Assembly (NCBI GenBank): GCA_016926735.1 | Contig: JAFGOA010000014.1 | Span: 1 to 64,000, forward strand | Source of the DNA: Promethearchaeota archaeon | GTDB lineage: Archaea > Asgardarchaeota > Lokiarchaeia > Sigyniarchaeales > SOKP01 | DNA: 64,000 nt | Direction of reading: 5' to 3' | Shown: one piece after another, positions 11,200 to 64,000 of the stretch | Layout: each line of letters begins with the position of its first letter | Numbering within the stretch: position 1 is the first letter of the stretch | Made by a program: the position numbers and the translations under genes | The notes under the pieces: model-generated | The model's input: only the letters and a program-made list of their open reading frames with translations | What the model was told of the DNA's origin: nothing | The model's database searches: none

Positions 11200-12042
11200 A
11201 TGAATTTTGATGAAGAAGATTTTGAATATGAAAAAAAAGAAATAAATAAGGAATCAGGATTTCTTGAAAAAAATATAGACAATATGATAAAAAAAAAAAT
11301 AGATAATAAAAGAATAAAAAATATTGATAAGACAAAGAAAAGAGCTGTGATTGAAGCAGTTTTTGATGAAAGAACAATCTGGGAATTAGGAAGACTAATA
11401 AAGAATGACATTATTCATCATATTGAAGGAATCATCTCCGCTGGAAAAGAAGCTAATGTATATCTTGGATATGATTGTGATGAGAAAGAAATAGCACTTA
11501 AAATTTATAAAATTGATAATAACATTTCTAAATGGATGAGAAACTATATTATTGGGGATCCCAGATTTAAAAATATTCCTAATAATACATCAAAAATTAT
11601 CTATCTATGGGCAACTAAAGAGTATAAAAACCTTAAAAGGGCATATAAATCAGATCTTAAGGTTCCTAAACCGATATATGTTAAGAAAAATATACTTATT
11701 ATGGAATATATCGGCATTGGACCTAATCCTGCCCCACGATTAAAAGATATTAAGAATCCACCTAATATTGGGAATATTATGGAAAATATTCTTCAATTCA
11801 TAAAAATTCTCTATCAAAAGGCAAATCTAGTTCATGGAGATCTATCTGAATTTAATATTCTTTTTCATAATCAAACTCCAATCATGATTGATATATCTCA
11901 AGGTGTATCTATACATCATCCAAAGGCAGAAATCTTTTTGGTAAGAGATATTAAAAACATTTTTAATTATTTTGAGAAATTTGAGATTGTACTTCCTGAT
12001 CCAGAAACCTTTTACTATGAGATAATTAAGACACAAAAATAA
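11200..12042 (+). CDS. rio1: RIO1 atypical serine kinase
   Basis: ISAGKEANVY, YIIGDPRF, WATKEYKNL, LVHGDLSEFNIL, IDISQGV. Confidence 0.94.
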   Translation: MNFDEEDFEYEKKEINKESGFLEKNIDNMIKKKIDNKRIKNIDKTKKRAVIEAVFDERTIWELGRLIKNDIIHHIEGIISAGKEANVYLGYDCDEKEIALKIYKIDNNISKWMRNYIIGDPRFKNIPNNTSKIIYLWATKEYKNLKRAYKSDLKVPKPIYVKKNILIMEYIGIGPNPAPRLKDIKNPPNIGNIMENILQFIKILYQKANLVHGDLSEFNILFHNQTPIMIDISQGVSIHHPKAEIFLVRDIKNIFNYFEKFEIVLPDPETFYYEIIKTQK

Positions 12043-30223: not shown

Positions 30224-30225
30224 AA

Positions 30226-33563: not shown

Positions 33564-34023
33564 TAAAAAAAGAGGAATTTTGTGTGATAAATTCGTAAAA
33601 AAATCTCTTTTTTACATAAGCATAACTGATCTTTTACACACTAATAGATTTTTTTTTATAACAGTATTCTCACTAATGGAAATTAAAATTAGTATCATTT
33701 AAATAAAATAATATCAAAGATATATTAAAAACTGACAAAAATATTGAGAATTTCCGTACTCTTATTCTTTATAGTTATTTGAATTATGCTAGCTAATGAT
33801 TATAGGCGTGATAATTGGTACTCTATAAAATTATGTCTAATGGGAATTTATCTTATTTCTCAATGCACCTATCGAAAAAATAACGAAAATAAATTAATTA
33901 ATTCCCTCTCAATTAGTCAGCTTATCTATTTAAAAGTCATAATTATTTTATTTTTTCTTTTAAATACTACGAAATGTTATTTATTAAAAATTTAGACCAA
34001 AAATAAAAAAATAGGTTATTGAC

Positions 34024-37000
34024 ATGGAAAAATATAGTGATAAATCAATTGTCTATAATAGGGTATCCTATCTATTTGAAAAAGAAGATAAGAAAAATTT
34101 AGAAGATCTTTCAATAGATCTAAGATTTAAAAACTCTCATCTCTCAATATATATGAATGAATTAAAGGATTCTGAAATTGATCTTAGACCATTTACAAAT
34201 AAACGTCAAATTAAGAATAATCCTATAACAATTTCCTTAGATATTAATCCTCATAAAATAAAGGAATTGCACTCAATTAAAGTTGAATTATTCGATCTTT
34301 ATGATATTATCTCAGGTTATTCAATAACTATCCCTGCAACAGAATTCGCACCCTTTAAAAAATCAATTGAAATCAATATTCCAAGTATCCAACAATATCT
34401 CGACAAAATAAAATTAATTCCTATTTTTAAAAATCCAAATCCAAAGTATAAATTATATTATGATGGATATTATGGTTCTTCTCAATCTAAAAAACAAAAA
34501 CAAAAACAAAAACAAGATCAAACATCTGATATAAGTAGTGATTCTTCTAATGTTTATACTTGGTCTTCAATTTTCTTATTATTAATTCTGAGTGTTATTT
34601 TATTATTTATCAATACACCATATTATCCAATTCCCATTTTATCCATGATTTTACCAATAATTCTATTTTCAAAGAGAGACAACCATCGTAAGTATTTTAT
34701 AACTGCTGTACTTATTTTACTATTTTTAGTCTGCTTTCCAGTAATTTTTACAATAACCCCTCTAACAAATGTAAATTCCCAGAAACCTCATTTTGCAAAA
34801 GTATCATATTCATCAGGACAAAATACTGATGATTTGAATTTTGATACATTACAATATTATAATGAACTTGAGGATCTGGGAAAAATAACGATTAATGATA
34901 TAATCATTTTAAAATCTGAAACCTCCTTATCTCTTGCTCAGAGTTCCCAACAGATAGTAATTCTAATAGCACAAAATAATACAATTATTAATCCAAAATA
35001 TTATGAAAAATCATTTAATTTTAGATCTAATTACATTCAAGGTCCTAAAAAAAAAACAGATATATTAACTATAATAGATCTTAAGGATTATGATTTATTA
35101 CCTGGGGAATATAGACTTACAACATTTCTTTCTGTAAATAATTTCTACGGAGTTCAAAGGTCTGAACTTCTAACCTATAATATCTCCCTTGGAAGAGACG
35201 TATTACATATTGTTGGATCTGATCGATATAAAGAATTAGGGAAATATGGCTCTGTATATACAATTGATAATCAAGATTCTTTTACTACTTTCTATGAAGG
35301 AAGAATCTTAAATTCAGCTGGAATTGGTGTTCAATTAGATAATATGGAATTATATTTAGAAAAGAACAATAGATATCAGAAAATTGCAACAATATCAACT
35401 AATAATCAAGGATATTTTATTTATAATTACACTACAAAAGGATACTTTGAAGTTAATTCTCTTGCGAAAATAGAATTTGGGGGAAATGAGCTATATAATT
35501 CGTTAACACAAGAAGAATATGCTGGTCTTGAACAAAGTATTAGAGGGAAAAGGATCTTCTCTGATTTAAATGGAGATGGATATCCTGAATTTCCATATAC
35601 ATTAGAGGAATTAATAAATGCATTAAACAATGCAAATCCCATAGAAATTCTATCCTTTTTCACAGAATTCAACGAGATGAGTGGAGCTTATGTGTATGAT
35701 TCAATATTAAATTATCAAGGAGAAGTATTTGGAAATGTTAATTTAAATATAGAGGGAATTCGAGATAGTGGAGCACGATTTGATGGTCTAGGAGATAAGA
35801 TCTATACAAATTCAGAATTTAAAATGGGTGATGTTAATCATGATGGGAAAATTGATATTCTCGACGCTCTTATTACCGCCCAAAATTATGTGGGGCTAAA
35901 TCCAGAACCATTTTATCCAGAACAAGCAGATGTAAACGGAGATAATAATATAGATATTCTTGATTCATTGCAAATTGCTCAATATTATGTAGGACTAATA
36001 ACTGAATTTCCTAATTCAGATCCTTCAGAAATTACCTATGATAATTATGATTATATTAATTTCGGTGATATTCTCAGTAGTGATTTAGCTTATAATGATG
36101 AATTTGGACTCTCATTATGGATAAATCCAAGCAAATTTTCTTCTAATTTAAGCGAACATGGGGTAAAGAATTGTTTCTTCTCCAAAGGTGAAAATCTAGA
36201 GATTGGATTTAACGAAAGTGGGTATTTAATGGTCTATTTGAATACAAATAATATCGAAACCATTACATATTTTGGTCAGGAAAACTCAATTCAAAAGAAT
36301 TTATGGAATTATATAGCAATTCGCTTTGAAATGGGAGATGTTGATGCTCTTATCCAAGATTCTTGGTATTTAACTGATATATACGATTCTGAGCCTTGGA
36401 TAAATTATGTATCATTAGATTTGAGTGGGGATCTTATTATAGGGGCAGAAATCAATACTTTCAGCTGTTTTGGAGGAATTATAGATGAGCTAAAGATTTA
36501 TCGAGAAGCACCTTTACATTCAGAATTAGAGGAGACCATTTATTCTATATTGAGAATTGATAGTGCGACAGCATATAACTTTCAAGATAACAATTGGCAA
36601 GATATAACTAATGGTGAAATAATTGATGAATATATTCTATTTGAATGTAATAAAAGCAGAGATTCACTTGCTATTATAGAAAAAGTAGAATTCTATCTTT
36701 CAAATACTCCTTTAGATTATAATAATATCATAATTGATCAATGGAAACTCATAAAAGAATTTCATTATGACGCAAATAACTATAAATATATGTTGGATAT
36801 AAGAGATATTCCTGATGGTGACTGGTATTTTATAATAAAAGCAATAGATAATAGAAATAATGAGATTTTTAAAACATGTGAAGTATTAGAAAATGATATT
36901 TATTTTACAATTAGCAATTTTCAAGATAATATAAATTTCATATATCTAGGATATAATGACAAGATTAATTATAATTCACAAATAGGTTTAACAATAGATC

Positions 37001-40000
37001 CTTTATTTGAAAATTATGTTGAATCACTTGATTTATTTATCAATTTTTCTGGATCTGTAGAAAAAATAAATCTAAATCCAATATCCTTTGATAAAATTAT
37101 ACAAAATAATTATCTAATTAGTTTAAATGATATTTCAGATTGGATTGAACAGATGAGCTTACTTCCTAATGAATATGATGTGTCATTTATCGTTAAAGGG
37201 TATTTTGATTTCAACCAATTTGGAGAATATGAATATACATATAACCTCAGCTCAACGATATTAGATATAAAATCCCCTGTAATATCAATTATAGAGAGTG
37301 GGTATAGTCTTGAGTTTGGAAAGACCTATACTGCTACAGACAATAATCAAATTACATTTGGAATCACATCTCTTGAGGATGATTTTAAAAAAGTAGAAAT
37401 TTATTATCGTTATGATAAAACGTCTCAGCAGGATGAGTGGATATTTTATAAAACAATTATTCCTCAGCAAATCCCTTTTGATATATCCTTTAATATAGCT
37501 AATCTCAAGGATGATAAAATATATCTACGCTTTAAAATTATCGATAACTTGGGAAATTCAAGAGATCTAATCAATGAAAATAATTGGATAGAGAAAGATC
37601 AAAACAACCATGATTTTATAGTGAATGGATTAGATGAAAATGCAATATATTCACTTGATTCAGGTAATATGATAGATATTGCTCCAGTAATACATCCCTA
37701 CGATAATGATATAACAAAAGTAATTATTACAACAGAATATGAATCATTTAGCTTAAACAATGTGTATATTGATCATAATAGCATCTATTTTTCAGACATT
37801 AATGAAGATATTAAACTAAATGCTGTTTTCTATACAATTTTTGGAAATAAAATCACTTCAATTCCAATAAAAGTACAACTTTTCCAAAATAATAATCTTA
37901 TTTCGTCAAAAATATTTTCCATAATCGCTACAGGAATGTATTTTTCAGAAATTATATCGATTTCAGATGTGATTATTAATCCTGAAGTCAATATTCCCAA
38001 TAATAATATAAATATGAGATTTACTACTTCAAAGAAGACATATAATAATTCATATGGAATTCCCTATATTGTAGGTTCTACTTCTCCCAATTTGCAGATA
38101 TATAATGATAATAATGAATTAGTTGATATTATAGATTTAAATCCAAATATTGATGGATATAGAAGTGCTTCCTACTCAAATATTAATATTAGAAATAATT
38201 ATTTTGAAATTTCATACCCAACAAATCTATTATATGAAGAGGACATATGTTCAATAGATAAGCTAATTATTGGTGGTATTGAATATGACTTCTCGCAATA
38301 CTTTAATAATGAAAATATCATTATAAAATTAGAGTCTCAAACTATATTAGATGGATTTTATGATAATGCTAATCCAATAAAGATTATATATAGTTATGTA
38401 TCATCTAATAAATTGAATCAATATGATGGTAGCTATGATTTTAAGACGATACCACAAGGAAACTACACATTCATTGGAGAGTTTTTAGATTTATCAGGAA
38501 AGCGCTCATATTATAAAATTGATAATTATAAGATTGATTTCCAAGAACCTCAAATCTATAGACAATTTAGAAACGGAATCTCAATAAATCCAAAATCACA
38601 TCCAAGTTTATCATTTATAATTTTGGATGCCTCAGAGATTATTAATTATTCATTTAACCAATCTCTAGAAGGATATTGGATAAAAGAAGGTAGTCTCTAT
38701 ACTTTTTATATAGATGAAAATATAAATCTCCCTGATGGGTATTATAATATTGAACTGAGTTTCGAAGATGCTAATAATTTCCTAAGTTCAATTGTATTTA
38801 GCATATTTATCGATACTCAAGCTCCTAAACCTAAGATTATAAAAAATGATTATGAGTACTTCAAGGGGCTCTATCACGTATATCTTGAGATTGAAGATGA
38901 TTCTATTTGTGAGCTTTATTTAGATAAAGTAGTTGATTCTCAAGGAATAATATTTGATAAGATTATACAATCAGTAATAAAGAAAAATGATACTGCTTGG
39001 GATTTAGTATTTGATACTTCACAACTCCCTGATGGCGTTTACAATCTAACATTTATCGTAATTGATCAAGCTGGAAATATGCTGAATTTTAATATAAACG
39101 ACAGAGTTTTTGATAACACTTCCCCTCAAGTTGAATCTATCTATAGAGAATGTGAAATCGAAAATCTACTTTATTTCTCAGAAGAATTAAGTGATACTAA
39201 TTACTTAAGTGAGCAAGAATATATTTTCATAAAGTCAGTGGATAAAATCTTCGGAAAAACTAATATTGTGGAACTATATTATACGGACCCTCTAGAAGAG
39301 CATAATTTAACAATAGCGGAAGATCTTAATCTTGAAACATTACTATATAAGGTAATAGGATATTCAAATCCAATTATCTATGATGTAGGAGATATATATA
39401 ACATCCAGAAAATAACGATTGGAGGGATAGAAGTTAATGATTTTTCAATTATACAAAAAGAGGGAGAGCTATTTTTAAAAATAGGAGAAGAATATCGCTA
39501 CTTATTAACATCAAGTAATGCAAATAAAATAACAGCTCAATTATACACTATAAATTCCAATAAATTAGAGCTTGTTTATAATAATTTAGACCAAATTTGG
39601 CAATTAAAATCACCTAATTCTGATTATTTTAATATATCTTCACATATTTTAATATCAGAAGGACAGACCTTTCTTTTCTGGTTTGAATTACAAGATAATT
39701 TAACAAACACTTTTATCACTAAAAAATATAAAGGTATTTTAGATAATGAATTAGAATTAACAGAAGAAAAGAGCCTTTTTGAATGGAATTTCAGAACTAA
39801 TCCTGATAATCAGGGAATAATGATCTTAGGTTCACCAGATCCAATGTATAGTATAATTAATATCAATCACACACTAATAGAACATGATGTATTTAAAGTC
39901 TATATCTATGGATCTGAAAATAATATAGACTTTTCCTTATTAGGAAGAGCATATTTTAACGGAGATAATATTTGGACTCTTTACTGGGATTATACACATA

Positions 40001-43000: not shown

Positions 43001-46000
43001 AGACTATAAGACTTCAGAATGAGTGGACGGGATATAGTGGATTAATAACCGCAAATATTACATATAAAGCGTTTAATTGGGATAGAAATAAGATATCAAC
43101 AGAACCAATTATATTTAATTTTAATGGAAATTTCATCAATAAAACTACGCAATTTTTAGAACTTGAGGTATCATTTGATAATAAGGGAGTACCTGGATTT
43201 GAATCATATGCTTTTGATTCAGAAGGTAGATTGTCTTTAAATGCTGAGTCAAAAGATCCAAATCTCATAAAAAGTTATTTTTATAATTTTAGATTGAAAA
43301 AGTGGGAGAAAACTGAATTTATTGTATATACAAAAATTTCAGGTAAAGAAGGTAATAGCTTACCAATATATTCTTATGTCTTTGATAGGACTGCTATAAC
43401 ATTTGAGGATTATTTCAATCAAGTTAATGAAAATAATTTTGAATTACAAGTAATATTTATTGTAGAATGTGAAATAGAAGCGTTCTATCTATCGAGAATT
43501 TCATATAATATTCAATCTATAAATCCAAAAGTATATTATAGCCCTCCTCAGAATGAAGTAGAAAATACACTTGAAGTTCAATTTGATGTAGATTTAACTA
43601 ATTATTTTAATAATCCAGATATTTATATCAATCAAATAAAGATCACTTTAGATTATTTAGCATCGCTAAATTTGGATAATTCAGAAGACTTTATTCAAAA
43701 TGCATTAGTTCAAGAAACACATGGAGTATATGTTCTAAATAAATATCTTGAGTATCAAGAGACTAATCTTGAACAAAATCATCTCTTTCTCTCTAAAGAT
43801 GATCTAAAAGATATAATTATCTATAATTCAGAAGCAAACCTTTATTATCTTAGAATAAAAGTTAGCTATAGTTATTCTCTACTTCTTTATATGAATTTAG
43901 GAGATATTTTAGGAGAAATTAGATCTTCTCTTCAATTATTGAAATATGACTTGTCTCTTTCATTTACTCATTTCAAAATGGAAAGAATCTCAGCATTTAA
44001 TAATAATATACCTTTTGAATTACAAGAAATTATTATTCCAGATTATATCCAATCAGGCAGTCAAATATTCACTCAAAATAATTATCTTAATAATTGTATT
44101 GGAATTTTTAACGGTTTTCTCAAGAAAAGTAAAACAAAACAACGATTAATGCTTAGACAAAATCTTTATTATAGAGTAAAGGATTTTGGTATCGATCACC
44201 AAATACTATTAGATCAAAGATATAATGATTTTCAATTCCAAATCACAAAACCAGTTGGAGCTTTATTGTCACCCTCAGAGATATATATTTCAAATGAAGA
44301 ATTATTTAGAGTAATAACATCCTCAGACATATCAAAAGCAGAATTATATGTTATAAATGATCAAGAACAGGATGAATATATTGGAGAATTGACTCCTTCT
44401 GAATCGGAAGAAAATATCTATGAATATAATTGGCAATCAATACAGCAAGATACTAATTCCCAAACAGGAGATAATATCAAAATAAAGATAATTCTTACAG
44501 ATCTTTTGCAAAATACAAATAGCTATGGATATAGTCTTCTTGCAAAATATGAACTTGATAAGCCTGAAATATTAATTTGTAATGGGACTGAGAATTATGA
44601 ATACACATTAACAAATCCATTTACAGAAATTCGATTCAAAAATTCAGAAAATAAGCTTTTAGCTTATTGGAATTTTGAGGAAGGGTGGGGAAATATGGTA
44701 TATGATGCTCTTGAAGGCACAGACGGAACTTTAATTAATATGGAAAATGTTAATTGGGCTACAGGTATAATCGGTAATTATAGTTTATATTTTGATGGAA
44801 TTAATGATTACATTAGAACAAATGTAAATCCAAATATCAATTTTAGAACTAGCGATTTCTCGATTAGTCTATGGGTAAATCCTGAAAACGTTCAATCCTC
44901 AACATTATTCTCGAGTATGGGAGATGTAAATATCTCGCTTCAATTAATAAACAATCAACCTTATTTCGAAATTATAGATAATGATGGAGACTTCCTTTCC
45001 AGAAGTATAGATATTCAATTAGAAATTAATCAGTGGTATCATCTTATTTTTACTTGGAATGGAGAGGAAATAACAGCATACATAGATAGAGCAATAAATC
45101 AAACAGCTCAATTAGGAGATGGTAATTTAATAGGCGATCTAAGTACCAATGCTCCTATTTATATTGGAGGTAATGAGAATCCAATAAATCAATATCAAGG
45201 ACTTATGGATGAAATAATGCTGTTTGATTTTGAGCTAAATACAGATGAAATTGATTACTTATTTTATAGGAATGAATTTCAGGAGGTTATTTCTGAATCT
45301 AAATGGTGGGAAATAGAAAATGATAATATAGAAGGTGGAGTAATTACAGGAGAGAATTGGCAAGAGGGAAAAGTAGGAGAACAATCATTTCAGTTTAATT
45401 CCCATTCAAATTCTCCTGAAATCAACGATTTTAATATATTTGATGGACAATCAACTCAAACAGGAAACTTAGAGAGCACTAAAGATAATAAAGGTATAGA
45501 TTTAACATCTACAGAAACATCATTTAATTATGATTTCTCAGATAATAGAAGAATTTGGGAATATGATCAAATACTATGGGATGAGGACTTTACAGTATTT
45601 GACTCCTCTTATATGAATTATATCTCAAATCCTAATTATGGAAGCTTATTTGAAATAACCAACAACTTAAATATGTTTAATAGATTTCCAACAGCTTCAA
45701 CTAATATAAACTGGAATGATTGGACCGATTTTAACTATAATAATTATTATACAACTTCAAATTGGGATCAAAATGGAGCTTTATCTTCTGAATTAAGACA
45801 ATTTAATTATGATTCAGCACAAGGAAATGATTTAATATTTACTCAGAATAAGGGTATGTGGGATAATCAATGTGGTCTAGAAGATGTTGGAGGAGATAAA
45901 GCAACCTTTTCCTCAACAGACTTAGATTTACAGGATGTAGAACGGTTTTCTCAAGATTTTGAGAATGGGGATTTTACAAATATTTCATATCCAGATTTTT

Positions 46001-61000: not shown

Positions 61001-64000
61001 AGACATATTTAGAAAATCCGAGAGATAGTTTTGATAATCATTTAAGCATAGATTTTAGTTTTATAAGTACTTCTGGAAATATTATATTTACCCAAAGTGC
61101 CAATGTAATTACAAGTGATATAACTTCATTTATTCCTATATCTTACACTACTAATTTAGATATATGTGACGATAATAATCATCTTCTTAACTATAATTCT
61201 GAATTATATGATCATTTTGAATTGTACACTGATCAAAGCTCTATTATTTATGAAGCAGATGTAGATCTCAATGGTGAACCTGAATACAAGCATATAATAG
61301 ATATTGATAAAGATGGTATAATAGATGTTATAAAATATGGAATACAAGATGCTGAAAATGCAGGACAGATACTTTGGCATACTGTAATTCAAAATTATAA
61401 TGGATTTGAGACGAAAATCACCAGAGAAAAAGGAGATGATCTAGAGACTAAATGGTTTGATGTAGATGACAAAGCATTTTCTCATTATGATTTTAATATA
61501 TGGAAACTAGTTGGGATGGTTTTATTTATGCCTCTATTACTCCAAGGATTGTTTAGTATGATCTCTCCTTCAAGTGATTATTGGGCTCAGAAAAAAGAGC
61601 AAACGATGATTACAAAGGAAGAGGCTGTAAATCATAAATTTTATAGTATAACCTTAGATAAAGATTATGATGGTTTAGCCGATCAGCAGATTGTATATGA
61701 AAGAAATGAAGCAATACTATCCTATAAAGTCGAGACGTTTGAGAAAACCTTACTTGTAGCAAAAAACAAAGGCAATGGTCTTATCCATCAACCATTAGAG
61801 AATATTTCTATTAATAAATATAATGATTTAGTATTTAATGATGAGCTAACCGAAGATTTACTTGATTCTGGTGATTTTACAAATTCTAATCATTATATTT
61901 TAGCAAATGAAGATATTCTTAGAGCTTCTTATAGGAAATTTACAGAAAATAGTTCTACATTTTATCAAGATAGTTATTCACAGGAAAAGATCACAATTAC
62001 AGATTACAGAGACGGTGAGATTTCCGAGCAGAGAATTTATCTTGATGATTTTAGAAGTAATGAAATTGATGAAATTGAACCTTATTTTACTTCCTTTATT
62101 CAAAGTCAACAAATAACTAACATCGAGACTGGAGAGCAGACAACGATAAGCTTTGATCCTCAACTTCCATTCACAGATCCTATAGATATCTCTTGGGAAG
62201 GTGAGACATGGGGGATTGATAATGTTCCTATTAAATTGGATTCTCTTCAGGTATTAGGAGAGAATTCCTACTCTTCAAATAGATTTGAAAAAGATATTTA
62301 TCTTACGATACCAAATCGATTTTCTTTATATAATGATTATGGTAAAATATCTAAGGATAGTGTTGTAAATAATGGCTATGCTCAATTTAAAGCTAGTGGT
62401 GTATTAATAACTACAACTGATGATAAAGTCTATTATACAGGAGATATTGATTCCTTCATTGATGGAAGTGCTAAGACCGAAGGCAAGTATTTTTATCATG
62501 ATAGTAATCAAGATGGATTTTATGAAACAGTCTATATCTTAAGTGCTAATCCAACAGAAGCAGAAGATGGACTTCCTATATATGATGTTATTTCAATTGC
62601 GTTTAATTATGATGGAGTCCATGATGTAGCTCCATACGGACAGATATATAAAAGTGAAATTACAAAGACAGATCTTAATGATTTAAGCTCAGATAAATTA
62701 AAAATGGGAGACTGGATTTATAGCTATGGTAATATTAGATCTGAAAAATTGTTATTCCCAGAAGAAAATGAGATTTGGGAGAAATATAAACCGAAGGATC
62801 ATATTTTTGAACTATATAAACTTGTAGATATTTCACAAAATCCAAAATTCTCAGAGCTTTTCTATGAAATTCGACATAAGACATATTCAGATGCATGGGA
62901 AATTTATAAAGACCAATTGTCAGCAGATATAATAGAACAGGTATTTACAACCACAACAGCTTCTGTTATTGCTGGAATTGTAGAAGCAATAATGACCGCA
63001 AGTATTATTTTAGCCCCTTTTGCACATGGGGCTGGAATCCTCACCTATTTTGGTGTATATACATTAATGACAAAGTATTTTATCGATCTAAAAGTTCATC
63101 GGTCAAATTCAATTTTGAAATCTCAGACGTTCTATCCCACAGATAAAGACAAGAAGACTCCTACATCTCTAAATGAGAGGATGTGGATGGATCGAATTCT
63201 AAAAGATTCTATGGCATCTGCTCTGATAGGTCATCCTGGGGGGTATTATAGAACTCTATCAGGGGGTATCTCAGGAGAAAAATATACAGCAGAGATTTTA
63301 GTTTCACCGCCAAATGGCGATAGGATCTTTAACTCTATGTCAGGATTTCTTGATTTGTTATGGGAGAATTTTTGGGATATGGGAGAATCTAATCCAGATG
63401 TCTATACTGCTCTTGATTTTGATGATCTTAATTTAGATTATTTCTTGCTAACAAACGATTTATTTGCTCTTAATGGAAGGACTGATAAAAAAGAATATTC
63501 ATTTAGCCTTCAAAATTATAATAATGGAATCTATAATGAATATCGGCAGACTACGCTTGGAGCTCTTCAAAATATGGTATCTATTGAATCTCAGAATGGT
63601 TTAAACACGATAAGAGCAACTTGTGTTAATGGAAGACCTGAATATGAGTTTATAAATAAAGATTCCATTCAATTTAATTCTATTTTACCGTTATCTGCAT
63701 TATCTAAGCCAATAATTCTAAGTAAGGAACGCTACTTACAAATTAATCCATTAAAAGGACATTTAACAATTGATGTTCAATGTGTAGGTGATCCGAATAC
63801 ATTAGGAATTTGTGCTTATGATATGAATTCAATAGAAAATCAATTCTATAAATCTAAAATATGCATTAATGAAGAGAGTTTCGATTATCCAATTTCAACC
63901 ATCTATATTGATATTATTCAGGAAGATGTGGAAAATGGAGTTCAATATCTTGCTCAAGGAATTGATATTAATAGCTCTGAATTTCTATTAGATGATGGAA
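34024..64000 (+). CDS. giant (at least 9,992 aa, 3'-partial) membrane-anchored surface protein with Ig-like, LamG, dockerin and Ca-binding motifs
   Basis: ATG at 34024 after an in-frame TAG. Frame +1 was open at every position translated by hand (MEKYSDKSIV... to ...SSEFLLDDG at the window edge). Its absence from the ORF track, with no long + strand ORF listed, fits an ORF with no stop in the window. Confidence 0.92.
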   Translation, partial: MEKYSDKSIVYNRVSYLFEKEDKKNLEDLSIDLRFKNSHLSIYMNELKDSEIDLRPFTNKRQIKNNPITISLDINPHKIKELHSIKVELFDLYDIISGYSITIPATEFAPFKKSIEINIPSIQQYLDKIKLIPIFKNPNPKYKLYYDGYYGSSQSKKQKQKQKQDQTSDISSDSSNVYTWSSIFLLLILSVILLFINTPYYPIPILSMILPIILFSKRDNHRKYFITAVLILLFLVCFPVIFTITPLTNVNSQKPHFAKVSYSSGQNTDDLNFDTLQYYNELEDLGKITINDIIILKSETSLSLAQSSQQIVILIAQNNTIINPKYYEKSFNFRSNYIQGPKKKTDILTIIDLKDYDLLPGEYRLTTFLSVNNFYGVQRSELLTYNISLGRDVLHIVGSDRYKELGKYGSVYTIDNQDSFTTFYEGRILNSAGIGVQLDNMELYLEKNNRYQKIATISTNNQGYFIYNYTTKGYFEVNSLAKIEFGGNELYNSLTQEEYAGLEQSIRGKRIFSDLNGDGYPEFPYTLEELINALNNANPIEILSFFTEFNEMSGAYVYDSILNYQGEVFGNVNLNIEGIRDSGARFDGLGDKIYTNSEFKMGDVNHDGKIDILDALITAQNYVGLNPEPFYPEQADVNGDNNIDILDSLQIAQYYVGLITEFPNSDPSEITYDNYDYINFGDILSSDLAYNDEFGLSLWINPSKFSSNLSEHGVKNCFFSKGENLEIGFNESGYLMVYLNTNNIETITYFGQENSIQKNLWNYIAIRFEMGDVDALIQDSWYLTDIYDSEPWINYVSLDLSGDLIIGAEINTFSCFGGIIDELKIYREAPLHSELEETIYSILRIDSATAYNFQDNNWQDITNGEIIDEYILFECNKSRDSLAIIEKVEFYLSNTPLDYNNIIIDQWKLIKEFHYDANNYKYMLDIRDIPDGDWYFIIKAIDNRNNEIFKTCEVLENDIYFTISNFQDNINFIYLGYNDKINYNSQIGLTIDPLFENYVESLDLFINFSGSVEKINLNPISFDKIIQNNYLISLNDISDWIEQMSLLPNEYDVSFIVKGYFDFNQFGEYEYTYNLSSTILDIKSPVISIIESGYSLEFGKTYTATDNNQITFGITSLEDDFKKVEIYYRYDKTSQQDEWIFYKTIIPQQIPFDISFNIANLKDDKIYLRFKIIDNLGNSRDLINENNWIEKDQNNHDFIVNGLDENAIYSLDSGNMIDIAPVIHPYDNDITKVIITTEYESFSLNNVYIDHNSIYFSDINEDIKLNAVFYTIFGNKITSIPIKVQLFQNNNLISSKIFSIIATGMYFSEIISISDVIINPEVNIPNNNINMRFTTSKKTYNNSYGIPYIVGSTSPNLQIYNDNNELVDIIDLNPNIDGYRSASYSNINIRNNYFEISYPTNLLYEEDICSIDKLIIGGIEYDFSQYFNNENIIIKLESQTILDGFYDNANPIKIIYSYVSSNKLNQYDGSYDFKTIPQGNYTFIGEFLDLSGKRSYYKIDNYKIDFQEPQIYRQFRNGISINPKSHPSLSFIILDASEIINYSFNQSLEGYWIKEGSLYTFYIDENINLPDGYYNIELSFEDANNFLSSIVFSIFIDTQAPKPKIIKNDYEYFKGLYHVYLEIEDDSICELYLDKVVDSQGIIFDKIIQSVIKKNDTAWDLVFDTSQLPDGVYNLTFIVIDQAGNMLNFNINDRVFDNTSPQVESIYRECEIENLLYFSEELSDTNYLSEQEYIFIKSVDKIFGKTNIVELYYTDPLEEHNLTIAEDLNLETLLYKVIGYSNPIIYDVGDIYNIQKITIGGIEVNDFSIIQKEGELFLKIGEEYRYLLTSSNANKITAQLYTINSNKLELVYNNLDQIWQLKSPNSDYFNISSHILISEGQTFLFWFELQDNLTNTFITKKYKGILDNELELTEEKSLFEWNFRTNPDNQGIMILGSPDPMYSIININHTLIEHDVFKVYIYGSENNIDFSLLGRAYFNGDNIWTLYWDYTHNSIIHTLPKDYYIQVVVLDRAYNSISQIESIKILDYQKLELVAEMTFGDILEYNPSIPHSIEEFSTKIKEFFGTADLWTIISEYYDTEYEEWIPLATETTQINIQGEYADYSITWDISEDIKFLDSMGSLNYEYLPMQITDIKATEIWGSWGVFNSFNQWQPLLLKNNSDYLDINIYSFDKSLGWILNTSLSTEIQIPYVDNSTFKLFDIDNDGIWEIIRFTKTSLDIIYLNNSVWNIKENVLDNQNNVYLTFDIIYDKICQSSTLLLVQQEGSFYTLYKYNLNSSFSIISQSTTQIIGNFIPTSINIVENFVFTDRKEIIVGGFYSHNFSSNLYIYNNENLEFKNCIFENILGVIDIIEYMMINGIPTIILGINQISIGNKDLVISLQYNYQLDDWIKYELSEIDEISFKIFDLMSINNNIIISANSGIFKAKIENNIDNKIVYNPSLIATETFTKSDLAPEFNPIIEVNHSPISEITKVLYKINDTWNILEKEKYYYSPFEVKLLLSDIWEFLGEIKIIYKYDSKSDEQKQKLDTTFEILHGSSNKEQISASSTFINEYPQPLLYLNPTTDYSSDNADWIELRHEWNERGINYRYTPIQSEYNVANFAQVYTPFSKNTILSIDENFQIDLSSNDDIGEIIAVKGIYYGGENQAYHYPIFDYELLGNDILSLKKCNTRSLYKKISIDYIPQIELVQLPQFNEFWFLPNTSRSLEEPYYVCNVMDDVNVYKDFIHQKGDNDYIIGYNEYGMYINFTNEINPIGIPKGSVYYAKNNTNYSTKISMKDYAIYPYEIIDKKDELIGGKLIITLKAGLNDILYAELSQMIHDSFDITISLYLLDSNKQRTFIHSIKKTLGSNIGFLLRNIEISLNENTLSNGELELLKQSVAIDSENDLLVSFETSLDNLKVNAEIIKGHYAQEIIDISFEPKILSSAQIYNGIPINQTYVNVPQDNIQLELINRSLYQFNSESLNYDYEITIQSLKAENLKIDENDYEFNEDEKTIRLQNEWTGYSGLITANITYKAFNWDRNKISTEPIIFNFNGNFINKTTQFLELEVSFDNKGVPGFESYAFDSEGRLSLNAESKDPNLIKSYFYNFRLKKWEKTEFIVYTKISGKEGNSLPIYSYVFDRTAITFEDYFNQVNENNFELQVIFIVECEIEAFYLSRISYNIQSINPKVYYSPPQNEVENTLEVQFDVDLTNYFNNPDIYINQIKITLDYLASLNLDNSEDFIQNALVQETHGVYVLNKYLEYQETNLEQNHLFLSKDDLKDIIIYNSEANLYYLRIKVSYSYSLLLYMNLGDILGEIRSSLQLLKYDLSLSFTHFKMERISAFNNNIPFELQEIIIPDYIQSGSQIFTQNNYLNNCIGIFNGFLKKSKTKQRLMLRQNLYYRVKDFGIDHQILLDQRYNDFQFQITKPVGALLSPSEIYISNEELFRVITSSDISKAELYVINDQEQDEYIGELTPSESEENIYEYNWQSIQQDTNSQTGDNIKIKIILTDLLQNTNSYGYSLLAKYELDKPEILICNGTENYEYTLTNPFTEIRFKNSENKLLAYWNFEEGWGNMVYDALEGTDGTLINMENVNWATGIIGNYSLYFDGINDYIRTNVNPNINFRTSDFSISLWVNPENVQSSTLFSSMGDVNISLQLINNQPYFEIIDNDGDFLSRSIDIQLEINQWYHLIFTWNGEEITAYIDRAINQTAQLGDGNLIGDLSTNAPIYIGGNENPINQYQGLMDEIMLFDFELNTDEIDYLFYRNEFQEVISESKWWEIENDNIEGGVITGENWQEGKVGEQSFQFNSHSNSPEINDFNIFDGQSTQTGNLESTKDNKGIDLTSTETSFNYDFSDNRRIWEYDQILWDEDFTVFDSSYMNYISNPNYGSLFEITNNLNMFNRFPTASTNINWNDWTDFNYNNYYTTSNWDQNGALSSELRQFNYDSAQGNDLIFTQNKGMWDNQCGLEDVGGDKATFSSTDLDLQDVERFSQDFENGDFTNISYPDFYNKNFAYDTNRIYLENQYPEIHSQEDWIDWSLDSNSQFSTSSWNPSTQKLNSDLRLRPSLSNPIYASSTNINKATDAFVHWDFAHQPGTGWWQNGFLFYNQIAKGLHPKANYDALAVYPDQPNLEEPKHGYTRKFEYSLEFEGDLYDDHVKTGMSIKDFAIGPFSICSWVYSNVPYNDHRWNTIIGEDSGGDFNLAQIDREGDGTFRVHIDGIIESTEIPCPRLPGWHLISLVFDGNNIKLYTNNVLRGTLPTSFSPENLSKGKIRIGGRSVLGESWDGYIDEVMIFRHALSDYDINWLYTYPTWESIIYQDKSKINEKDGIGLILEKTLDVQKLIPNGSRVFEYQGESGHTYDTQADNWWEDVDALYNQYGTWAGSSGPATVWTNEYVTAQIESGNINQYWERTDILLDISALLTPADEVGYFAIYDYSDSTYKQIFRITSNDGYDIYWDKFNRIQINSHDNSVIDPINSNGDMEFYFHNKAWDFWSLDSTVRVLMNQFLIFNYVRQIESEINFNFGDALDGENDYFLSFAGKCDAGTASLQVNDNNVLNIGSGSWTEETDIYLENPTSISINLDSYETNNIEIDYIFLKKAVPTDDYFAELKKETDFKGFLNRYDDYDIYDKNFEMNVEFEYRFNVNDELWSEASIAEFYLYDNYYNIFINDNQWHTLNDHIIFNSDSQPYLNMTFIIANGLLELRNMKYHVRFLCKESFQENCILQQSYIISEQVSDYLPPDTYATYRQDYGYFFIEIDYDFKTLDDGNNYRLYNTSNIYKFGIGIDILSDGVWLDTQWKHLSNNNYTGMLSFDVRSFLNNNSYLTFEAFNITIALAGLSSCEINRISLIERADEVHQKSEVDYYMTLSLFEHNYNNIYDTLEHLNITFNAYSNVTFSDGYSDAFKFDLLVYNVRHSQWESIVDVVKLLPKDGFWEAIDAEEYINSTGHISFQIKAHILYYFEYEIYLDQFRIECEWIRNGGFNYSTLSCEFTDTFLNIFDNEEGFDKLYNISINFDYNFSILNTQYDAYAKVIIDGNEIMLSSTEELNKQFMYSFIFDSTNHNSFDIIFNISNGRLSIPLLTDGGDFNFDINMRFECIQETSGNRKLQQIFDISLPDQLNNFKEFIRENGYLNVSLDYDLIILEDGIQFYNLYGRINNLEIIFWVKADGVWHNDTVIQADSNITNDLINYDIRAFLNANNLQKFEDLNITIVSSGQNNLTIHDIKFFDHRHRLPANIVTTIEFPVELLYVDYEFELIYEYDISNGLDGVFTKEEISIYNFITTQYEILTSTDDFTPLSFKLDNNYIDPIYNAIRINISYEYYGNEQEQFNLDLDVLQAVQYNHITFDIPTVFENPMGDVSFAGWVKLDSLSELSTLYGEFKENGDVMNYFGITGNGELFFDKIGLYDNNNVTSVPNIINLGEWTHIAIIQQGDYISFYKNGLKMGDTQIYMKTYSNFIPEIISIGSGYQLNSYFHNRFHGCIDDIRLYNFPLTSTEINFLYNMGNGQFGSLSRRVAQPRNFIPSEQYRIIDLKTGDESEWIDFHSQSIRNLHDLGSLPNEFQIEYMLIDYAGNTAITDVYNRNYKTIHHSRNSSITWIDETLDLNSGNPDERELIFEGSFGGANLDVLINGFRYGTASYNPILDQYSITFGIENDKSTLVAYSDPIMSPSIYSNVNPLNRISWNVNREDLFGVIKHILVDQDVKITNPLTTKATQKLYLAHLYDRGVILDDYMRIRDVYYINSTTNVSEHLLYGEYLINDLGVVSFPEYSKVYDLYNKIDEIKGKVLYFEYDTSQFSNMLHQDNADGFYIELSIPDLYYRHTTIEQLNIKFNDALGKCFAKTYYDLDLRKYFIGPDKDNYEEVIFGFGKMRTIPLYIDLQEISFSNPYAKFDLSMLESISIEIIDNKQFPSSLMQYEEGISLLNLPYQKIAIKTIKLYNSISDDLIEDDQGFIHSQIRLQAPNYFNVFVDDDFKIKREEINLTDISIYANQEKIVDFVDIEYSDNIEVYLRYNKSLSPIPLEDIYYIPLSLCNASSNEILRFSTIRWISSVDYLPASEFASKYYYTSFKVPDCLGTHNISFISSGTSLYKINIDNAPIIALNVTQEGLSESEPLYLEEDQYEVKYREDFMLKGCILDNDDVIVKDEVYDYWYQTAYDGETTHKLDIISPYGDKNFIDTTQVAVYYINEDSEKAPLYINMDNIYYLDNTIINSDKVPEIRYSNNQFNLNIYWNTSSINFIDYDTTLLVSYKIIKGQPISPLSYSKIDDLGHNMYSNLIEIPFVEYDLINKEWITKKSITDRFSIDKNLLYYETYQKNTNIEGPSYLVNGERINLDILSFEHAYVNKSNTLIPIELLPENYTYSIIDGTLHFEYLDFKQGDIVTIGYYAYHPIMLDYSLEEQNLEYIRLISQSNYSNYYEFTQSKYKISEDGFTLFLQSLGDIDFETSEFDIYDLIEVKYHASLTRRVDLSSSILLLVQDETGNYLPVDTIPIDSLGLFEYQKTFSIDSLPLPMNYGKTLVNMRIDYLPINIYDKTKESIQQIDYEFEGKKRYSIKESNDWNKEFRIYTIPRKVKLEMIEDPTQQMVVSQTFKENREYQLNQNPLETIEQGEEYSSLQIDALVKQDYDFTFKLTDFSENNPIENSIVWAHIGLIPKSETQFLNPKAITDSGLPIYYESLGTELFSSRGPGEGPNKMYGCPLIYDNDNTFFSYGPYYWDYRITNELGEVSFNISLDQDYLEDFKQNFGDSEDITSIEDVVLYIRVFSSYFNWQDMSIDHPEHYICSKQGDIFDGQSILENYDFTDLSLQDSTYAEGIIRLHKKDIALGIVDRLSYQLRENIPEYDDFSFNIYCTEAEPIPSSSSLSLSSLLQVYESKDLEATMTSILNENHSYILKAKFIDPQGNAVRNPYITEEKSYDFFFSIKNGFNSGKITIPNDTIAYIINALGLGMSTIQIQVLESAYYKFSPIITVPFDIQSENYLRFGEKNLKLDLIEPYISAWGNAYSNNEEMPFESNYPYLIGTLWVEPEIDGGNDLSIQDYIEMNIDCTIYNDDGTTSTFPLREGVMIRPGNHDGIMTFSIGLGPEDAFLMGLECDINLRFNIDYTKDQIYQDQRDIEIYLLDLRLESNPTSNNPTIYWSIYNDKFSSENIDIDITNGISEASGLLTLRDQEIFFIYSNDTKRYGLPSENELLSLKSQENIIPITVKGVKDGSEYEFRRDIDYIIPYIHSENLENASIIEFIEYPDEETEFSITYMFDFNYDSNYYGLISLGYSNTLNQSSINLKIPKSLLPESSKAKSPMFTRFTDRFIGTGIQSEFILDYSLDDTPIWNDDNFIIYNSREIESQNGNFNVDLYQGYPRLIFENAPPSDLEFKVMYGIKSGYNLGYGFQKIDKSYSDSIRLLYYGETPSSQIIDEMRKPLTSYNPNNNSLYIALDNSEKTRLELLSLPLLYAPEISLYFVFDEIILDLIEKYNELDKNNLKIEFKYTTNDGFYEFYSDPIFIDLDYNELYFDIENNAYTFSYQKDLQPIYDMVGTNNLDIEIKISELGDNVHIPYLILDSFEYLTDERIIETYNNIPLDNKGDMDIDSIINTNHYYQIFSTDLITEYNLLSNSEVTVGLKDLQDTELVSLQKTENEEFNFLYYGDERTISLDDSSYIPNLGMFINTYESNEIGYQDGFLDLYYGSGTEIDGEKYYDKDIYMEYGTYAVADYYSRVVDYTSISWEDCYEFTDKFLTTDNIDVSGEVFYHQLFSLNSDINNSAVMNSIFPEYDNIYFGIELARDLDISRIGAVGKPYYYAIGAQGFPIGEYRELYCNVIANGDQIYNPTPSQFVIEKESEYRLAYDENNTAYLLFFIPLYELSTFTDINDYIMVDFWANAEFTYGKDYYIHENPENSYISELEFDFSYSSVYSYNVHPDFKNNNHFNIKYYALEWENANEHYIMDSSDSFTFQEKEKYNISILYSNAKNSDKFSVQYLVPEGQYMKGSELFTTIYTLMQNSNNEEKLIQINIGDNNNLILQEAPNSYNYTINIDEIESYVNLIYGIPYRIIEDSYVYVLAEFNSTMLKYSMSHTPFNYKYVDPSKGDYHIELIIDGESIAFSNQILFHEYIKEIKENYIYFNNKERGQIGYISPQSEITLKYKFKLQPGILERKHFLILSYPYSNIFNTEMGLTTSSDTKYRETYRKLSGGSIISPFDYSISIDDTYSLYLSYRLNQRDYYEQKFTIQAQNYVSWENGYIYKFIPDDLRENGYIEVLKTDDNINSVNVYYFDNFGHMKFLDKTHYNLDFSTGRILIENDGNELVGPSLLKKEFYVSFLSNPNDKELASYQFSYDSTKDIVETLDVNYWDIIGIDDIDIIPNLDAYYYINEQKSTLTNTVCLASQISTYLKDGTELEFDISAELEQSNSELLSAIHEGKYSVLHVDAHIDNLESVKKLIIELYDNFGSVIHTHSIVKEEIEMYDNDLRIELPDGPNSLQTIRIIPIFRDDNEYSSNNDIGISQIQATKWDNALVSINEDGIEYMDVTLQYDLKTDLSTSGYELAYIFNDKLEYLELPENISIAYDTLTDENGNILSYHLKIPSVYIHPKTKETTKFHHDDIIVIRYNSPIKRGITLTVGKMYFENNIHQDLEKAEIMFVNADSQNSYSQFTEDYYYSVPLQVTPFETEYSGRFKAIKIELNFSDLFKQQNANTLDFSDIVVSVPHPNYELTINEIVLLKDSQITAESGDVDSRVWQYCEIEMFEASETPENDVYQLQLDELPLFYPNTEWIEYLSIYDENGNYYTAGLTGDQYQLHYDGTSNEFRWNPSFNQYPSYFGMEFEETLIIEPNTTLYFQYCTNDSWNTPIRIEQENIALNSIRVVYDYNYLLKPEYYEWYRDYFNPTHSYENIAYSFQDSVEYEVVQYYHESFTIYEGVNQYEYQFDTDDYNFQDDFIDCNLYQVIGLTPTFESEVLTDNPDYLIEFYPSNNSVLILNINNENLNKFDLITIVLNYKYGPISSYTEIHLLDVFNQTYLENPRDSFDNHLSIDFSFISTSGNIIFTQSANVITSDITSFIPISYTTNLDICDDNNHLLNYNSELYDHFELYTDQSSIIYEADVDLNGEPEYKHIIDIDKDGIIDVIKYGIQDAENAGQILWHTVIQNYNGFETKITREKGDDLETKWFDVDDKAFSHYDFNIWKLVGMVLFMPLLLQGLFSMISPSSDYWAQKKEQTMITKEEAVNHKFYSITLDKDYDGLADQQIVYERNEAILSYKVETFEKTLLVAKNKGNGLIHQPLENISINKYNDLVFNDELTEDLLDSGDFTNSNHYILANEDILRASYRKFTENSSTFYQDSYSQEKITITDYRDGEISEQRIYLDDFRSNEIDEIEPYFTSFIQSQQITNIETGEQTTISFDPQLPFTDPIDISWEGETWGIDNVPIKLDSLQVLGENSYSSNRFEKDIYLTIPNRFSLYNDYGKISKDSVVNNGYAQFKASGVLITTTDDKVYYTGDIDSFIDGSAKTEGKYFYHDSNQDGFYETVYILSANPTEAEDGLPIYDVISIAFNYDGVHDVAPYGQIYKSEITKTDLNDLSSDKLKMGDWIYSYGNIRSEKLLFPEENEIWEKYKPKDHIFELYKLVDISQNPKFSELFYEIRHKTYSDAWEIYKDQLSADIIEQVFTTTTASVIAGIVEAIMTASIILAPFAHGAGILTYFGVYTLMTKYFIDLKVHRSNSILKSQTFYPTDKDKKTPTSLNERMWMDRILKDSMASALIGHPGGYYRTLSGGISGEKYTAEILVSPPNGDRIFNSMSGFLDLLWENFWDMGESNPDVYTALDFDDLNLDYFLLTNDLFALNGRTDKKEYSFSLQNYNNGIYNEYRQTTLGALQNMVSIESQNGLNTIRATCVNGRPEYEFINKDSIQFNSILPLSALSKPIILSKERYLQINPLKGHLTIDVQCVGDPNTLGICAYDMNSIENQFYKSKICINEESFDYPISTIYIDIIQEDVENGVQYLAQGIDINSSEFLLDDG
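34561..34755 (+). other. three N-proximal transmembrane segments of the giant protein
   Basis: WSSIFLLLILSVILLFI / PIPILSMILPIILF / YFITAVLILLFLVCFPVIF. Confidence 0.75.
35641..36540 (+). other. LamG/concanavalin A-like domain 1 (interrupted by a dockerin)
   Basis: EFNEMSG..VYDS...ARFDG [insert] YINFG...FGLSLWINP...WNYIAIRF...LIIGA...FGGIIDELKIY. Confidence 0.75.
35827..36012 (+). other. type I dockerin domain
   Basis: GDVNHDGKIDILDALITAQNYVGL...ADVNGDNNIDILDSLQIAQYYVGLITEFP (duplicated Ca-binding F-hand motif). Confidence 0.9.
44656..45270 (+). other. LamG domain 2 (intact)
   Basis: LLAYWNFEEGWG..VYD...SLYFDGINDYI...FSISLWVNP...WYHLIFTWNG...YQGLMDEIMLF. Confidence 0.85.
46230..46900 (+). 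other. LamG domain (nested inside the large insertion)
   Basis: VHWDF...SLEFEG...FSICSWV...WHLISLVFDG..IKLY...IRIGGR...WDGYIDEVMIFRHALS. Confidence 0.8.
47800..50000 (+). repeat. two diverged tandem protein repeats of about 380 aa in the giant ORF
   Basis: IEIDYDFKTLDDG vs VSLDYDLIILEDG and RSFLNNNSYLTFEAFNITI vs RAFLNANNLQKFEDLNITI, about 1,140 nt apart. Confidence 0.75.
50000..50495 (+). other. C-terminal part of a split LamG domain
   Basis: YNHITF...VSFAGWVKL...GEWTHIAII...FYKNG...SIGS...FHGCIDDIRLYNFPLT..EI..LY. Confidence 0.75.

Follow-up and report, generated by a model that had tools for sequence, protein, structure and literature searches.

Giant surface proteins of a clade-restricted Promethearchaeota (Asgard) family whose tails have almost no N-glycosylation sequons

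We analysed a 64,000-nucleotide stretch of DNA from a Promethearchaeota archaeon (assembly GCA_016926735.1), hereafter the window, which is the initial 64 kb of contig JAFGOA010000014.1 (92,111 bp without any N). The window carries one giant open reading frame (ORF) in frame +1, which starts with an ATG at 34024 and stays open to the window end (codons 1–9,992, 34024..64000, + strand). A preliminary description of the window had reported this frame of at least 9,992 codons leaving the 3' edge, and we confirm it: the full translation is stop-free, and extension along the contig reached a stop after 11,373 codons (34024–68145, +). At 27.9% GC, the random expectation of zero stops over 11,373 codons is ~1e-429. 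The ATG is preceded by an in-frame stop 9 nucleotides upstream, and by our reading of the sequence an AGGT lies 8–11 nucleotides 5' of it. A TATA-like box (TTTAAATA, 33959..33966, +) is found 65 nucleotides 5' of the start codon, which we note as a match to the consensus only and not as evidence of function. GC content is even along the gene and its flanks, a tandem-repeat search of the gene's DNA returned four trivial arrays and no meaningful one, and self-BLAST with 300-residue pieces found a single internal repeat pair (residues 4604–4837 and 4981–5215, four high-scoring segment pairs at 26%–30% identity). Since the gene is without repeats, the usual origin of chimeric giant frames, mis-joined repeats, does not apply here. 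The giant gene is real, complete and under selection, and its product belongs to a family of giant surface proteins that is restricted to a clade of Promethearchaeota (Asgard archaea).

Relatives of the giant were found in other Asgard genomes, as the preliminary description had proposed to look for, and they include intact colinear giant frames in independent assemblies. These frames are uninterrupted, 11–20 thousand residues long, and align with the giant at 30%–58% identity. A relative from the same genus (contig G001:C5) is colinear over residues 184–10193 at 30%–53% identity, and residues 6801–10193 align in one frame at 48%–50% identity across seven loci. Further colinear partial giants end at contig edges, namely a paralogue on contig C95 of the giant's own genome and C-terminal ends on its contigs C27 and C8. 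The own genome holds three family copies, each making up ~0.9% of the genome. Of 400 genomes of the phylum, 46 carry the family by a profile of the C-terminal module, and 43 of the 134 genomes in the same taxonomic family carry it, so that it is nearly confined to one Promethearchaeota family. At least 12 other genomes have intact frames; these measure 11,241–14,833 residues, apart from one that reaches 20,619. The suggestion that the protein is exceptionally large for an archaeal one therefore holds against archaea generally and fails within its own family.

Some observations on relatives stand apart from this pattern. The G001:C5 relative (25824–68621, −; loci L091–L093) is a 14,266-residue protein in which one in-frame TGA, inside a conserved region, separates 1,540 from 12,725 residues, and this TGA could be a sequencing error, a pseudogene mutation or a genuine split. 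The 20,619-residue frame (locus L135, G216:C13, around 141159–148305) may rank among the largest archaeal frames. When residues 5701–6900 were compared with 1.84 billion cluster representatives, 78 matches were returned, mostly fragments, and those looked up were annotated "hypothetical protein" or nameless. A word-based protein search with residues 1–5000 against proteins of 5,495–17,486 residues gave one weak LamG match and missed relatives that genome searches later found, so it is no evidence that the giant stands alone.

The most widely conserved part of the giant is a C-terminal module of residues ~9100–10193, which the preliminary description missed together with the tail that follows, most of these lying outside the window. 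We modelled residues 9101–10300 from a 20-row alignment, with a predicted local distance difference test score (pLDDT) of 61.1 overall and 70–87 across residues 9610–10200. The module contains a conserved hydrophobic helical hairpin (residues 9640–9690, 62941..63093, +) at the tip of two helices modelled at pLDDT 70–84 (9611–9659 and 9664–9701). It is followed by a predicted alpha/beta domain (residues 9720–10040, 63181..64000, +, extending 143 nucleotides beyond the window; pLDDT 70–87) and by two long modelled helices of 71 and 55 residues (10045–10115 and 10119–10173) that are rich in Ala, Ser, Thr, Gly and Ile. More helices come after these, including a predicted transmembrane helix at residues 10262–10287 (contig 64807–64884, +, beyond the window), followed by basic, K/R-rich sequence. 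In the hydropathy of the family consensus, the windows 9640–9667 and 10262–10284 stand out, and 10262–10284 is the strongest. A further candidate membrane helix at 9159–9181 was dropped, since the family consensus shows no hydrophobicity there.

Polar residues of the module are near-invariant at S9715, N9717, D9723, D9728, H9737, N9764, R9767, D9800, N9803, D9805 and E9812. By its residues, this cluster (9715–9812, window 63166–63459) resembles an active or metal-binding site and may be one, and it matches no known family. Structural comparisons of the C-terminal model gave nothing from which we draw a conclusion: the best Foldseek match (E 0.024) was to MACPF-type pore forms and rested on low-confidence long hairpins, and the best match in the VIA-wide comparison (Z 6.5) was to helical membrane proteins, under the stated noise level. 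Profile searches of the PDB with the C-terminal module and proximal tail returned nothing better than E 0.6, and searches of the ESM Atlas with the tail and the alpha/beta domain gave no usable match.

The module ends at a conserved ...SARE junction (residue 10193), after which come a linker, the helix 10262–10287 and a sequon-free tail of 1,086 residues (10288–11373, contig 64885–68142, +). With 13.1% K+R and 14.3% D+E, the tail has a composition that is cytoplasm-like (proteome background 12.4% and 12.4%) and unlike that of the acidic ectodomain, where K+R is 6.7%. Across the family, the sequence beyond the ...SARE junction comes in at least three tail classes, with similarity breaking at this fixed point. 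The nearest tail to the giant's, at 45% identity along the full length, belongs to locus L128, a stand-alone short form of 1,403 residues made up of the module end, the helix and the tail. Its nearest stalk relative (L108), at 58% identity in the module, is only 25% identical in the distal tail. Frames beginning inside the C-terminal region occur in 7 of 20 loci. At one of these, L116, the short form has a giant of 12,291 residues ~8 kb upstream. The tails are modular and do not follow the history of the stalk. An early view that the tail was unique to this protein was rejected once the tails of other genomes were compared. Of 20 tails scanned with Pfam, two carry recognised domains, a ubiquitin-family domain in L125 (tail residues 330–389, 32.1 bits) and LAGLIDADG_3 in L124 (tail residues 600–678, 28.9 bits). 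We also observed a weak ThiS-like match in the L108 tail (residues 259–311) and a weak ubiquitin match in the gene after L123.

Tails differ from the rest of the family proteins in having almost no N-glycosylation sequons, counted here as N-x-[S/T] where x is not Pro. In 22 tails of all classes we counted 2 sequons where 176.6 were expected. Seven further independent tails had 0 against 75.7 expected (66 in the reversed-motif control), which brings the 29 tails combined to 2 sequons versus 252 expected, a strong signal to which each of the 29 contributes. The giant's own tail has 0 against 7.3 expected, and zero was reached in 0 of 2000 shuffles. Related motifs are present at ordinary or near-ordinary numbers: the reversed [S/T]-x-N occurs 164 times versus 176.6 expected in the 22-tail set, Q-x-[S/T] occurs 104 times versus 96 expected, and N-[S/T] and N-x-x-[S/T] were observed 170 and 185 times. 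The non-acceptor N-P-[S/T] is tolerated (14 occurrences), and the rare acceptor N-x-C is absent (0 versus 4.7 expected). The loss of tail sequons follows the rules of the oligosaccharyltransferase.

Controls from the same genomes and proteins did not show this loss. Over 1,668 ORFs of the proteome the ratio of observed to expected sequons is 1.03, and among the 279 ORFs expecting five or more, 0.36% have none. The leucine-rich repeat (LRR) proteins encoded beside the giants have 18 sequons versus 15.8 expected, the ectodomains of relatives have ratios of 0.95–1.6, and in five family members the heads, which come before the first membrane helix, contain 13 versus 12.9 expected. The whole giant contains 94 sequons against 128.3 ± 9.9 in 500 shuffles, and is thus depleted rather than, as the preliminary description had it, rich in them. 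Sequons persist in the module to about residue 10100, and the family's sequences are free of them from about 10200 to their end. Four module sequons are conserved in position, at 9309 (9 of 16 sequences), 9388 (11 of 16), 9878 (7 of 20) and 9983 (11 of 20). Judged from the aligned sequences, these look like kept glycosylation sites, and they would put the alpha/beta domain outside the cell.

These patterns suggest where the tail goes. Archaeal N-glycosylation works at the outer face of the membrane. Because the oligosaccharyltransferase faces outward, sequons can be selected against only in protein that reaches the outside, and a tail that is never exported should resemble the heads and the proteome. 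The tails do not, so most likely the tail is exported and must remain unglycosylated. An early reading with both termini in the cytoplasm was demoted after this result.

A second recurrent feature is the gene beside the 3' end of the giants. We considered 30 distinct loci with a visible 3' end, comprising 3 from the own genome, 20 of 24 in a first set and 7 of 10 in a later set; 4 loci without a stop in the DNA available were excluded from the first set, and from the later set 1 cut by a contig end and 2 duplicates. An LRR protein gene lies within ~700 nucleotides of the giant's stop in 19 of the 30 loci. Seventeen of these LRR proteins are above the Pfam cut-off, and those at C27 and L137 fall below it, yet share the N-terminal domain of their counterparts. 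The LRR genes are either co-oriented, 57–91 nucleotides downstream, or convergent and abutting; at L126 the LRR gene is the second gene, 663 nucleotides downstream. As the own genome has ~23 LRR ORFs, for which adjacency would be expected by chance at ~0.7%, the number of LRR neighbours is far above chance. In five more loci the neighbour is a small protein whose N-terminal helix is basic and whose C-terminus carries a CxxC...CxxC zinc ribbon (a tandem at L121), bringing loci with an adjacent LRR or zinc-ribbon gene to 24 of 30. Next to the 20,619-residue giant is a protein with an Arf-like GTPase domain, and the other five loci have other genes. The giant's own neighbour is a 559-residue LRR protein (contig 68222–69901), co-oriented and 76 nucleotides downstream. 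The products of the 3'-flanking genes look cytoplasmic, and by eye we found no signal peptide or membrane helix in them. The Arf-family GTPase-domain protein beside L135 is 285 residues long and is encoded 61 nucleotides downstream (E 1.4e-12).

At its other end, the giant begins with a predicted cytoplasmic head and a membrane anchor. The preliminary description proposed an N-terminal domain of roughly 180 residues with three transmembrane helices, which agrees with what we see: a 175-residue head (34024..34548, +) precedes the first hydrophobic helix, and a hydrophobic cluster at residues 176–250 (34549..34773, +), which we read as three helices with a KRDNHRK loop, follows. Hydropathy windows of the anchor lie at 176–203 and 222–250, with mean Kyte-Doolittle values of 2.4–2.9. 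The head contains 16.0% K+R and 13.7% D+E. It is not conserved among paralogues, whose own heads span 124–523 residues before the first hydrophobic window.

After the anchor comes an acidic, non-repetitive ectodomain of ~9,800 residues, and the module with its hydrophobic helices follows it. Residue counts bear out the acidic body rich in Asn, Tyr and Ile that had been described, with 1704 D+E versus 867 K+R, 11.0% I, 8.7% N and 7.4% Y in the whole protein; residues 251–9158 have 6.7% K+R, 15.4% D+E and a net charge of −768. Several domain assignments of the preliminary description also stood. A type I dockerin is present at residues 602–654 (35827..35985, +; PF00404, E 4.8e-10, 39.9 bits against a cut-off of 22.9), it carries both of its DxNxDGxIDxxD calcium-loop segments, and PDB dockerins match it at E 1.3e-3. 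All four LamG units are above the cut-off of PF13385 (Laminin_G_3; 39.6–77.4 bits, cut-off 27.6), at residues 674–831, 3592–3743, 4139–4288 and 5341–5484. The one nearest the N-terminus (36043..36516, +; E 7.3e-10, 39.6 bits) is conserved in the C95 and G001:C5 paralogues. DxDxDG motifs occur as claimed, with three exact copies and six loops of the D.[DN].DG type versus 0.53 expected. Three peptide strings that had been quoted were located at residues 929, 1668 and 5549, and the Ig-like character read from the sequence is supported by a Big_3_3 bacterial Ig-like match (residues 1658–1713, 38995..39162, +; PF13750, E 1.1e-6, 28.8 bits, cut-off 27) and by the mostly beta model described below.

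Other sequence searches of the ectodomain were negative. Pfam, NCBIfam and PDB sequence searches found nothing in it besides LamG, dockerin and the one Big_3_3 match. The NCBIfam matches were solely sub-threshold TafC matches at the LamG sites, and the PDB sequence search of the giant gave no match other than dockerins and one LamG-type chain (4qvs, "S-layer domain-containing protein", residues 5344–5488, E 5.4e-9). RTX-type families were absent from the Pfam matches of the whole protein at E 0.01 or better, and so were glycosyl hydrolase, peptidase and transferase domains from the giant's Pfam matches. The own genome also has 19 dockerin and 7 cohesin matches, with 6 cohesins above the cut-off, and by these matches a cohesin-dockerin docking system appears to be encoded there. 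Among them, a 2,040-residue frame on C147 combines three cohesins with a dockerin of its own, and cohesin-dockerin genes also occur on C154, C55 and other contigs.

Comparison across the family indicates a conserved backbone to which swap-in cassettes are added. The relatives on G001:C21 and G001:C63 lack the variable cassette at residues 3543–5510 (44650..50553, +), which contains LamG units 2–4 and the sole internal duplication, and three relatives hold 1,700–2,300 additional residues at the junction 2594/2614. The best-conserved core of the ectodomain is residues 5701–6900 (51124..54723, +), which is also the ectodomain segment that was modelled. The AlphaFold2 model, from a 48-row alignment, is nearly all beta (pLDDT 78.7, predicted template modelling score 0.65). 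Foldseek matched it to macroglobulin-type and Ig arrays (alpha-2-macroglobulin, complement C3/C5, titin) at E 5.5e-9, with TM-scores of only 0.06–0.10, and single domains of the model superpose at Z 6.7–7.5 with root-mean-square deviations of 2.5–2.7 Å across 90–109 residues. On this model, the segment is a chain of beta-sandwich domains that has diverged past sequence recognition.

The giant gene lies among housekeeping genes and its locus does not look mobile. The flanking genes include an unsplit RpoB, TFE, PAN, Cbf5 and the PolD subunit DP2 with an intein, with Ras/Roc GTPases and LRR proteins nearby, and the relatives of RpoB are in Promethearchaeota (Asgard) genomes. The 64-kb window has no tRNA, and neither an integrase nor a ParA-like gene was found near the giant. 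The genes upstream of the giant encode a winged-helix protein and an ABC-2 transporter. In a search for conserved upstream genes, nothing emerged but one weak match, to an ABC-2 permease encoded upstream of the G001:C5 relative (26% identity, E 2e-5). The ABC-2 transporter pair (window 29297–31206, −) and the G001:C5 permease (L093:14628–14996) may reflect chance or a weak conserved link.

Several further genes were noted in the same genome. The DP2 frame on C69 (86338–91497, −; L002:8338–13497) encodes 1,719 residues interrupted by the intein (Intein_splicing, Hint). A 667-residue protein on C69 (72113–74116, −; L001:9113–11116) has six DUF285 repeats (E 1.3e-204) and a weak PKD match. On C95, a 3,998-residue frame with PKD domains, CBM96 and a bacterial TSP3 repeat (69342–81335, +; L103:3342–15335) is located 12 kb upstream of the giant paralogue, and on C8 an insertion-sequence-type transposase in two frames (HTH_32/HTH_33 and DDE_3; 2998–4112, −; L101) is next to the C8 giant's LRR neighbour.

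A giant adhesin or surface scaffold, as first suggested, is only part of the picture. The anchor, the acidic ectodomain, the LamG and dockerin domains and the beta-sandwich array fit a giant membrane-anchored surface protein, with adhesion and contact with partner cells as putative roles. This description is incomplete, since it omits the C-terminal module, the sequon-free tail and the 3' gene. We propose, with an expectation somewhat short of even, that the giant is a surface stalk anchored at its N-terminus whose exported, glycan-free tail crosses a second membrane, and that the products of the neighbouring genes act in the receiving cytoplasm. The stalk would be held by its N-terminus in the membrane of the producing cell and project outward, with contact made by the LamG units, the dockerin and the variable cassettes. 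The final 1,200–1,300 residues would be exported. The hydrophobic C-terminal helices would then insert into the second membrane, that of another cell or of another protrusion, and bring the tail into its cytoplasm. Such insertion and passage would demand that the tail stay glycan-free, and this could be why the tail is kept bare. The tail's composition and the ubiquitin-like and nuclease-like domains found in tails point to work in a cytoplasm, where the tail would act on arrival and meet the LRR, zinc-ribbon or small-GTPase-like products as neutralisers or adaptors. We consider this the simplest account that covers the sequon loss, the tail composition, the hydrophobic module, the modular tails and the 3' genes together. 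The outcome could be either antagonistic (toxin and immunity) or cooperative (a kin tether or signal). The stronger form of the proposal, a contact-dependent device for delivery or tethering between Asgard cells in which a stalk of more than 10,000 residues inserts its C-terminal helices into a second membrane and threads through it a glycan-free, cytoplasm-adapted tail, in some members with ubiquitin-like or nuclease-like modules, to be bound there by LRR, zinc-ribbon or small-GTPase-like proteins, is a possibility that we regard as doubtful.

Several observations weigh against passage through a second membrane. The basic residues after the helix 10262–10287 fit a stop-transfer helix equally well, which would leave the tail in the cytoplasm of the producing cell. 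The C-terminal model is of moderate quality (pLDDT 61.1) and resembles no known translocation fold. Tails are 600–1,900 residues long, far above known delivered toxin domains, and they are not hypervariable, with 45% identity in the tail versus 52% in the adjacent module. Pfam recognised toxin families in 0 of 20 tails, the one LAGLIDADG_3 match apart. Neighbour type does not strictly track tail type: the giant and L128 share a tail type and differ in their neighbours, the giant having the LRR gene and its genome having no zinc-ribbon gene anywhere, and 6 of the 30 loci have other gene types at the 3' end. We also know of no case in which one archaeal cell has been demonstrated to deliver protein into another.

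The main rival to this proposal is an adhesion receptor with a double anchor, in which both sets of helices lie in the producer's membrane, the ectodomain forms a giant loop, and the tail is cytoplasmic and bound by the LRR, zinc-ribbon or GTPase-like neighbours, coupling contact to signalling or the cytoskeleton. That the strongest hydrophobic window of the family consensus (10262–10284) is followed by K/R-rich sequence fits this arrangement, as do the cytoplasm-like composition of the tail, its ubiquitin-like and LAGLIDADG domains, and flanking products that lack signal peptides and whose genes in many loci are co-oriented and 57–82 nucleotides downstream. Adhered Asgard cells are also described as crawling, in a report that leaves their adhesion molecules unnamed (PMC13716822). 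A receptor does not account for a sequon loss that is specific to the glycosylation rules and to tails (2 versus 252), when heads (13 versus 12.9) and the proteome (1.03) are normal, and many LRR neighbours are convergent rather than operonic; we therefore judge it rather unlikely. Sequon loss would fit exposure to the outside in a purely extracellular protein, an envelope scaffold or fibre in which the tail is a glycan-intolerant assembly domain and the neighbours are unrelated. The dockerin and the genomic cohesins suggest docking into outside assemblies, and Loki-type cells are described as lacking an S-layer and as having complex surface proteins, some of which link protrusions (PMC9834061). 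We think this scaffold improbable given a tail with 13.1% K+R versus 6.7% in the ectodomain, ubiquitin-like and LAGLIDADG domains in tails, and an LRR gene at the 3' end in 19 of 30 loci versus ~0.7% expected. An assembly chimera, a pseudogene or mobile-element cargo such as an aloposon-like giant gene might be considered for a frame from a draft genome of 238 contigs, with one in-frame TGA in the G001:C5 relative and with Asgard mobile elements described that carry giant genes (PMC8813620). The gene has even GC and no repeats that could be mis-joined, independent assemblies are colinear over the full length, tail included, and housekeeping genes (RpoB, Cbf5, PolD) flank it, without a tRNA in the window or an integrase or ParA-like gene close by. 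These points make this explanation very improbable.

Loki-type Asgard cells have no cell wall and depend on intimate contact with partner cells, and such contacts are central to models of eukaryote origin. The loss of sequons from the tail turns a giant adhesin into a question of where the tail goes and how LRR and zinc-ribbon proteins act on it. If a delivery or tether device is real, cells of the lineage nearest to eukaryotes would have in it a direct molecular means of exchange or conflict with one another. Surface densities have been described that connect parts of the protrusion network in Ca. Lokiarchaeum ossiferum (PMC9834061). In the literature searched, we found neither the giant family described nor the C-terminal module, sequon-free tail or neighbour gene that go with it; this search did not extend to figures and supplements, which may list members.

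Compared with other giant proteins of archaea and bacteria, the giant shares size and some modules. Among archaeal proteins that reach at least 5,000 residues, Laminin_G_3 is reported as the commonest domain, and its function is called "not understood" (PMC11573180). These archaeal huge proteins resemble the giant in size, far above 5,000 residues, and in having LamG near the N-terminus with further copies; compared by description, they differ in that the survey reports no C-terminal membrane module, tail or conserved neighbour for them (PMC11573180). Archaeal proteins above 10,000 residues are reported to be few and most numerous in Asgard archaea (bioRxiv 10.1101/2023.11.21.568195). The Omnitrophota giants described in the same source are in this size class, non-repetitive and multidomain, some with dockerins, and a role in cell contact has been proposed for them (bioRxiv 10.1101/2023.11.21.568195). 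Again compared by description, the giant differs from them in that glycosyl hydrolase, peptidase and transferase domains were not found in it. The RTX and BIg giant adhesins have near-identical tandem Ig-like repeats and use type I secretion. The giant shares with them a long beta-sandwich stalk, calcium-binding motifs and lectin-like modules, and is unlike them in having one internal duplication, no RTX match and a C-terminus that is a helical tail of 1,086 residues.

Within Asgard archaea, "many unrelated giant genes" above 3,000 residues have been reported (PMC8813620). The aloposon genes Otus and Ephialtes of Heimdallarchaeum are likewise giant, described as tandem pairs of 3,000–6,000 residues with a tRNA integration site and a ParA-like set (PMC8813620). 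The giant's locus, compared by description, is without these hallmarks (tandem pair, tRNA, ParA-like genes). Fat-type protocadherins of animals combine a very large beta-sandwich ectodomain, which includes LamG modules, with a membrane helix and with a tail in the cytoplasm to which an LRR-containing protein binds. They are a functional parallel, not a homologue, and only if the giant is a doubly anchored receptor; we know of no sequon-free tail in animal receptors.

In layout, the giant resembles the polymorphic toxin and contact-dependent inhibition systems. In both, the long stalk is conserved, as is the module just ahead of a C-terminal region that is itself modular; C-terminal cassettes also occur on their own, and by the 3' end there is a gene for a small cytoplasmic protein, sometimes in tandem (PMC3482391). 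The survey of these systems lists LRR immunity proteins, a predicted precedent for the neighbours seen here, and describes the systems as generally absent from most archaeal lineages (PMC3482391). The giant differs in having no known toxin domain, in its non-hypervariable tails of 600–1,900 residues and in the mismatch between neighbours and tails, and it is anchored by N-terminal membrane helices where polymorphic toxins use a bacterial secretion system. What is new in this family is the conserved architecture of stalk, module, tail and neighbour gene, together with its signature of glycosylation avoidance.

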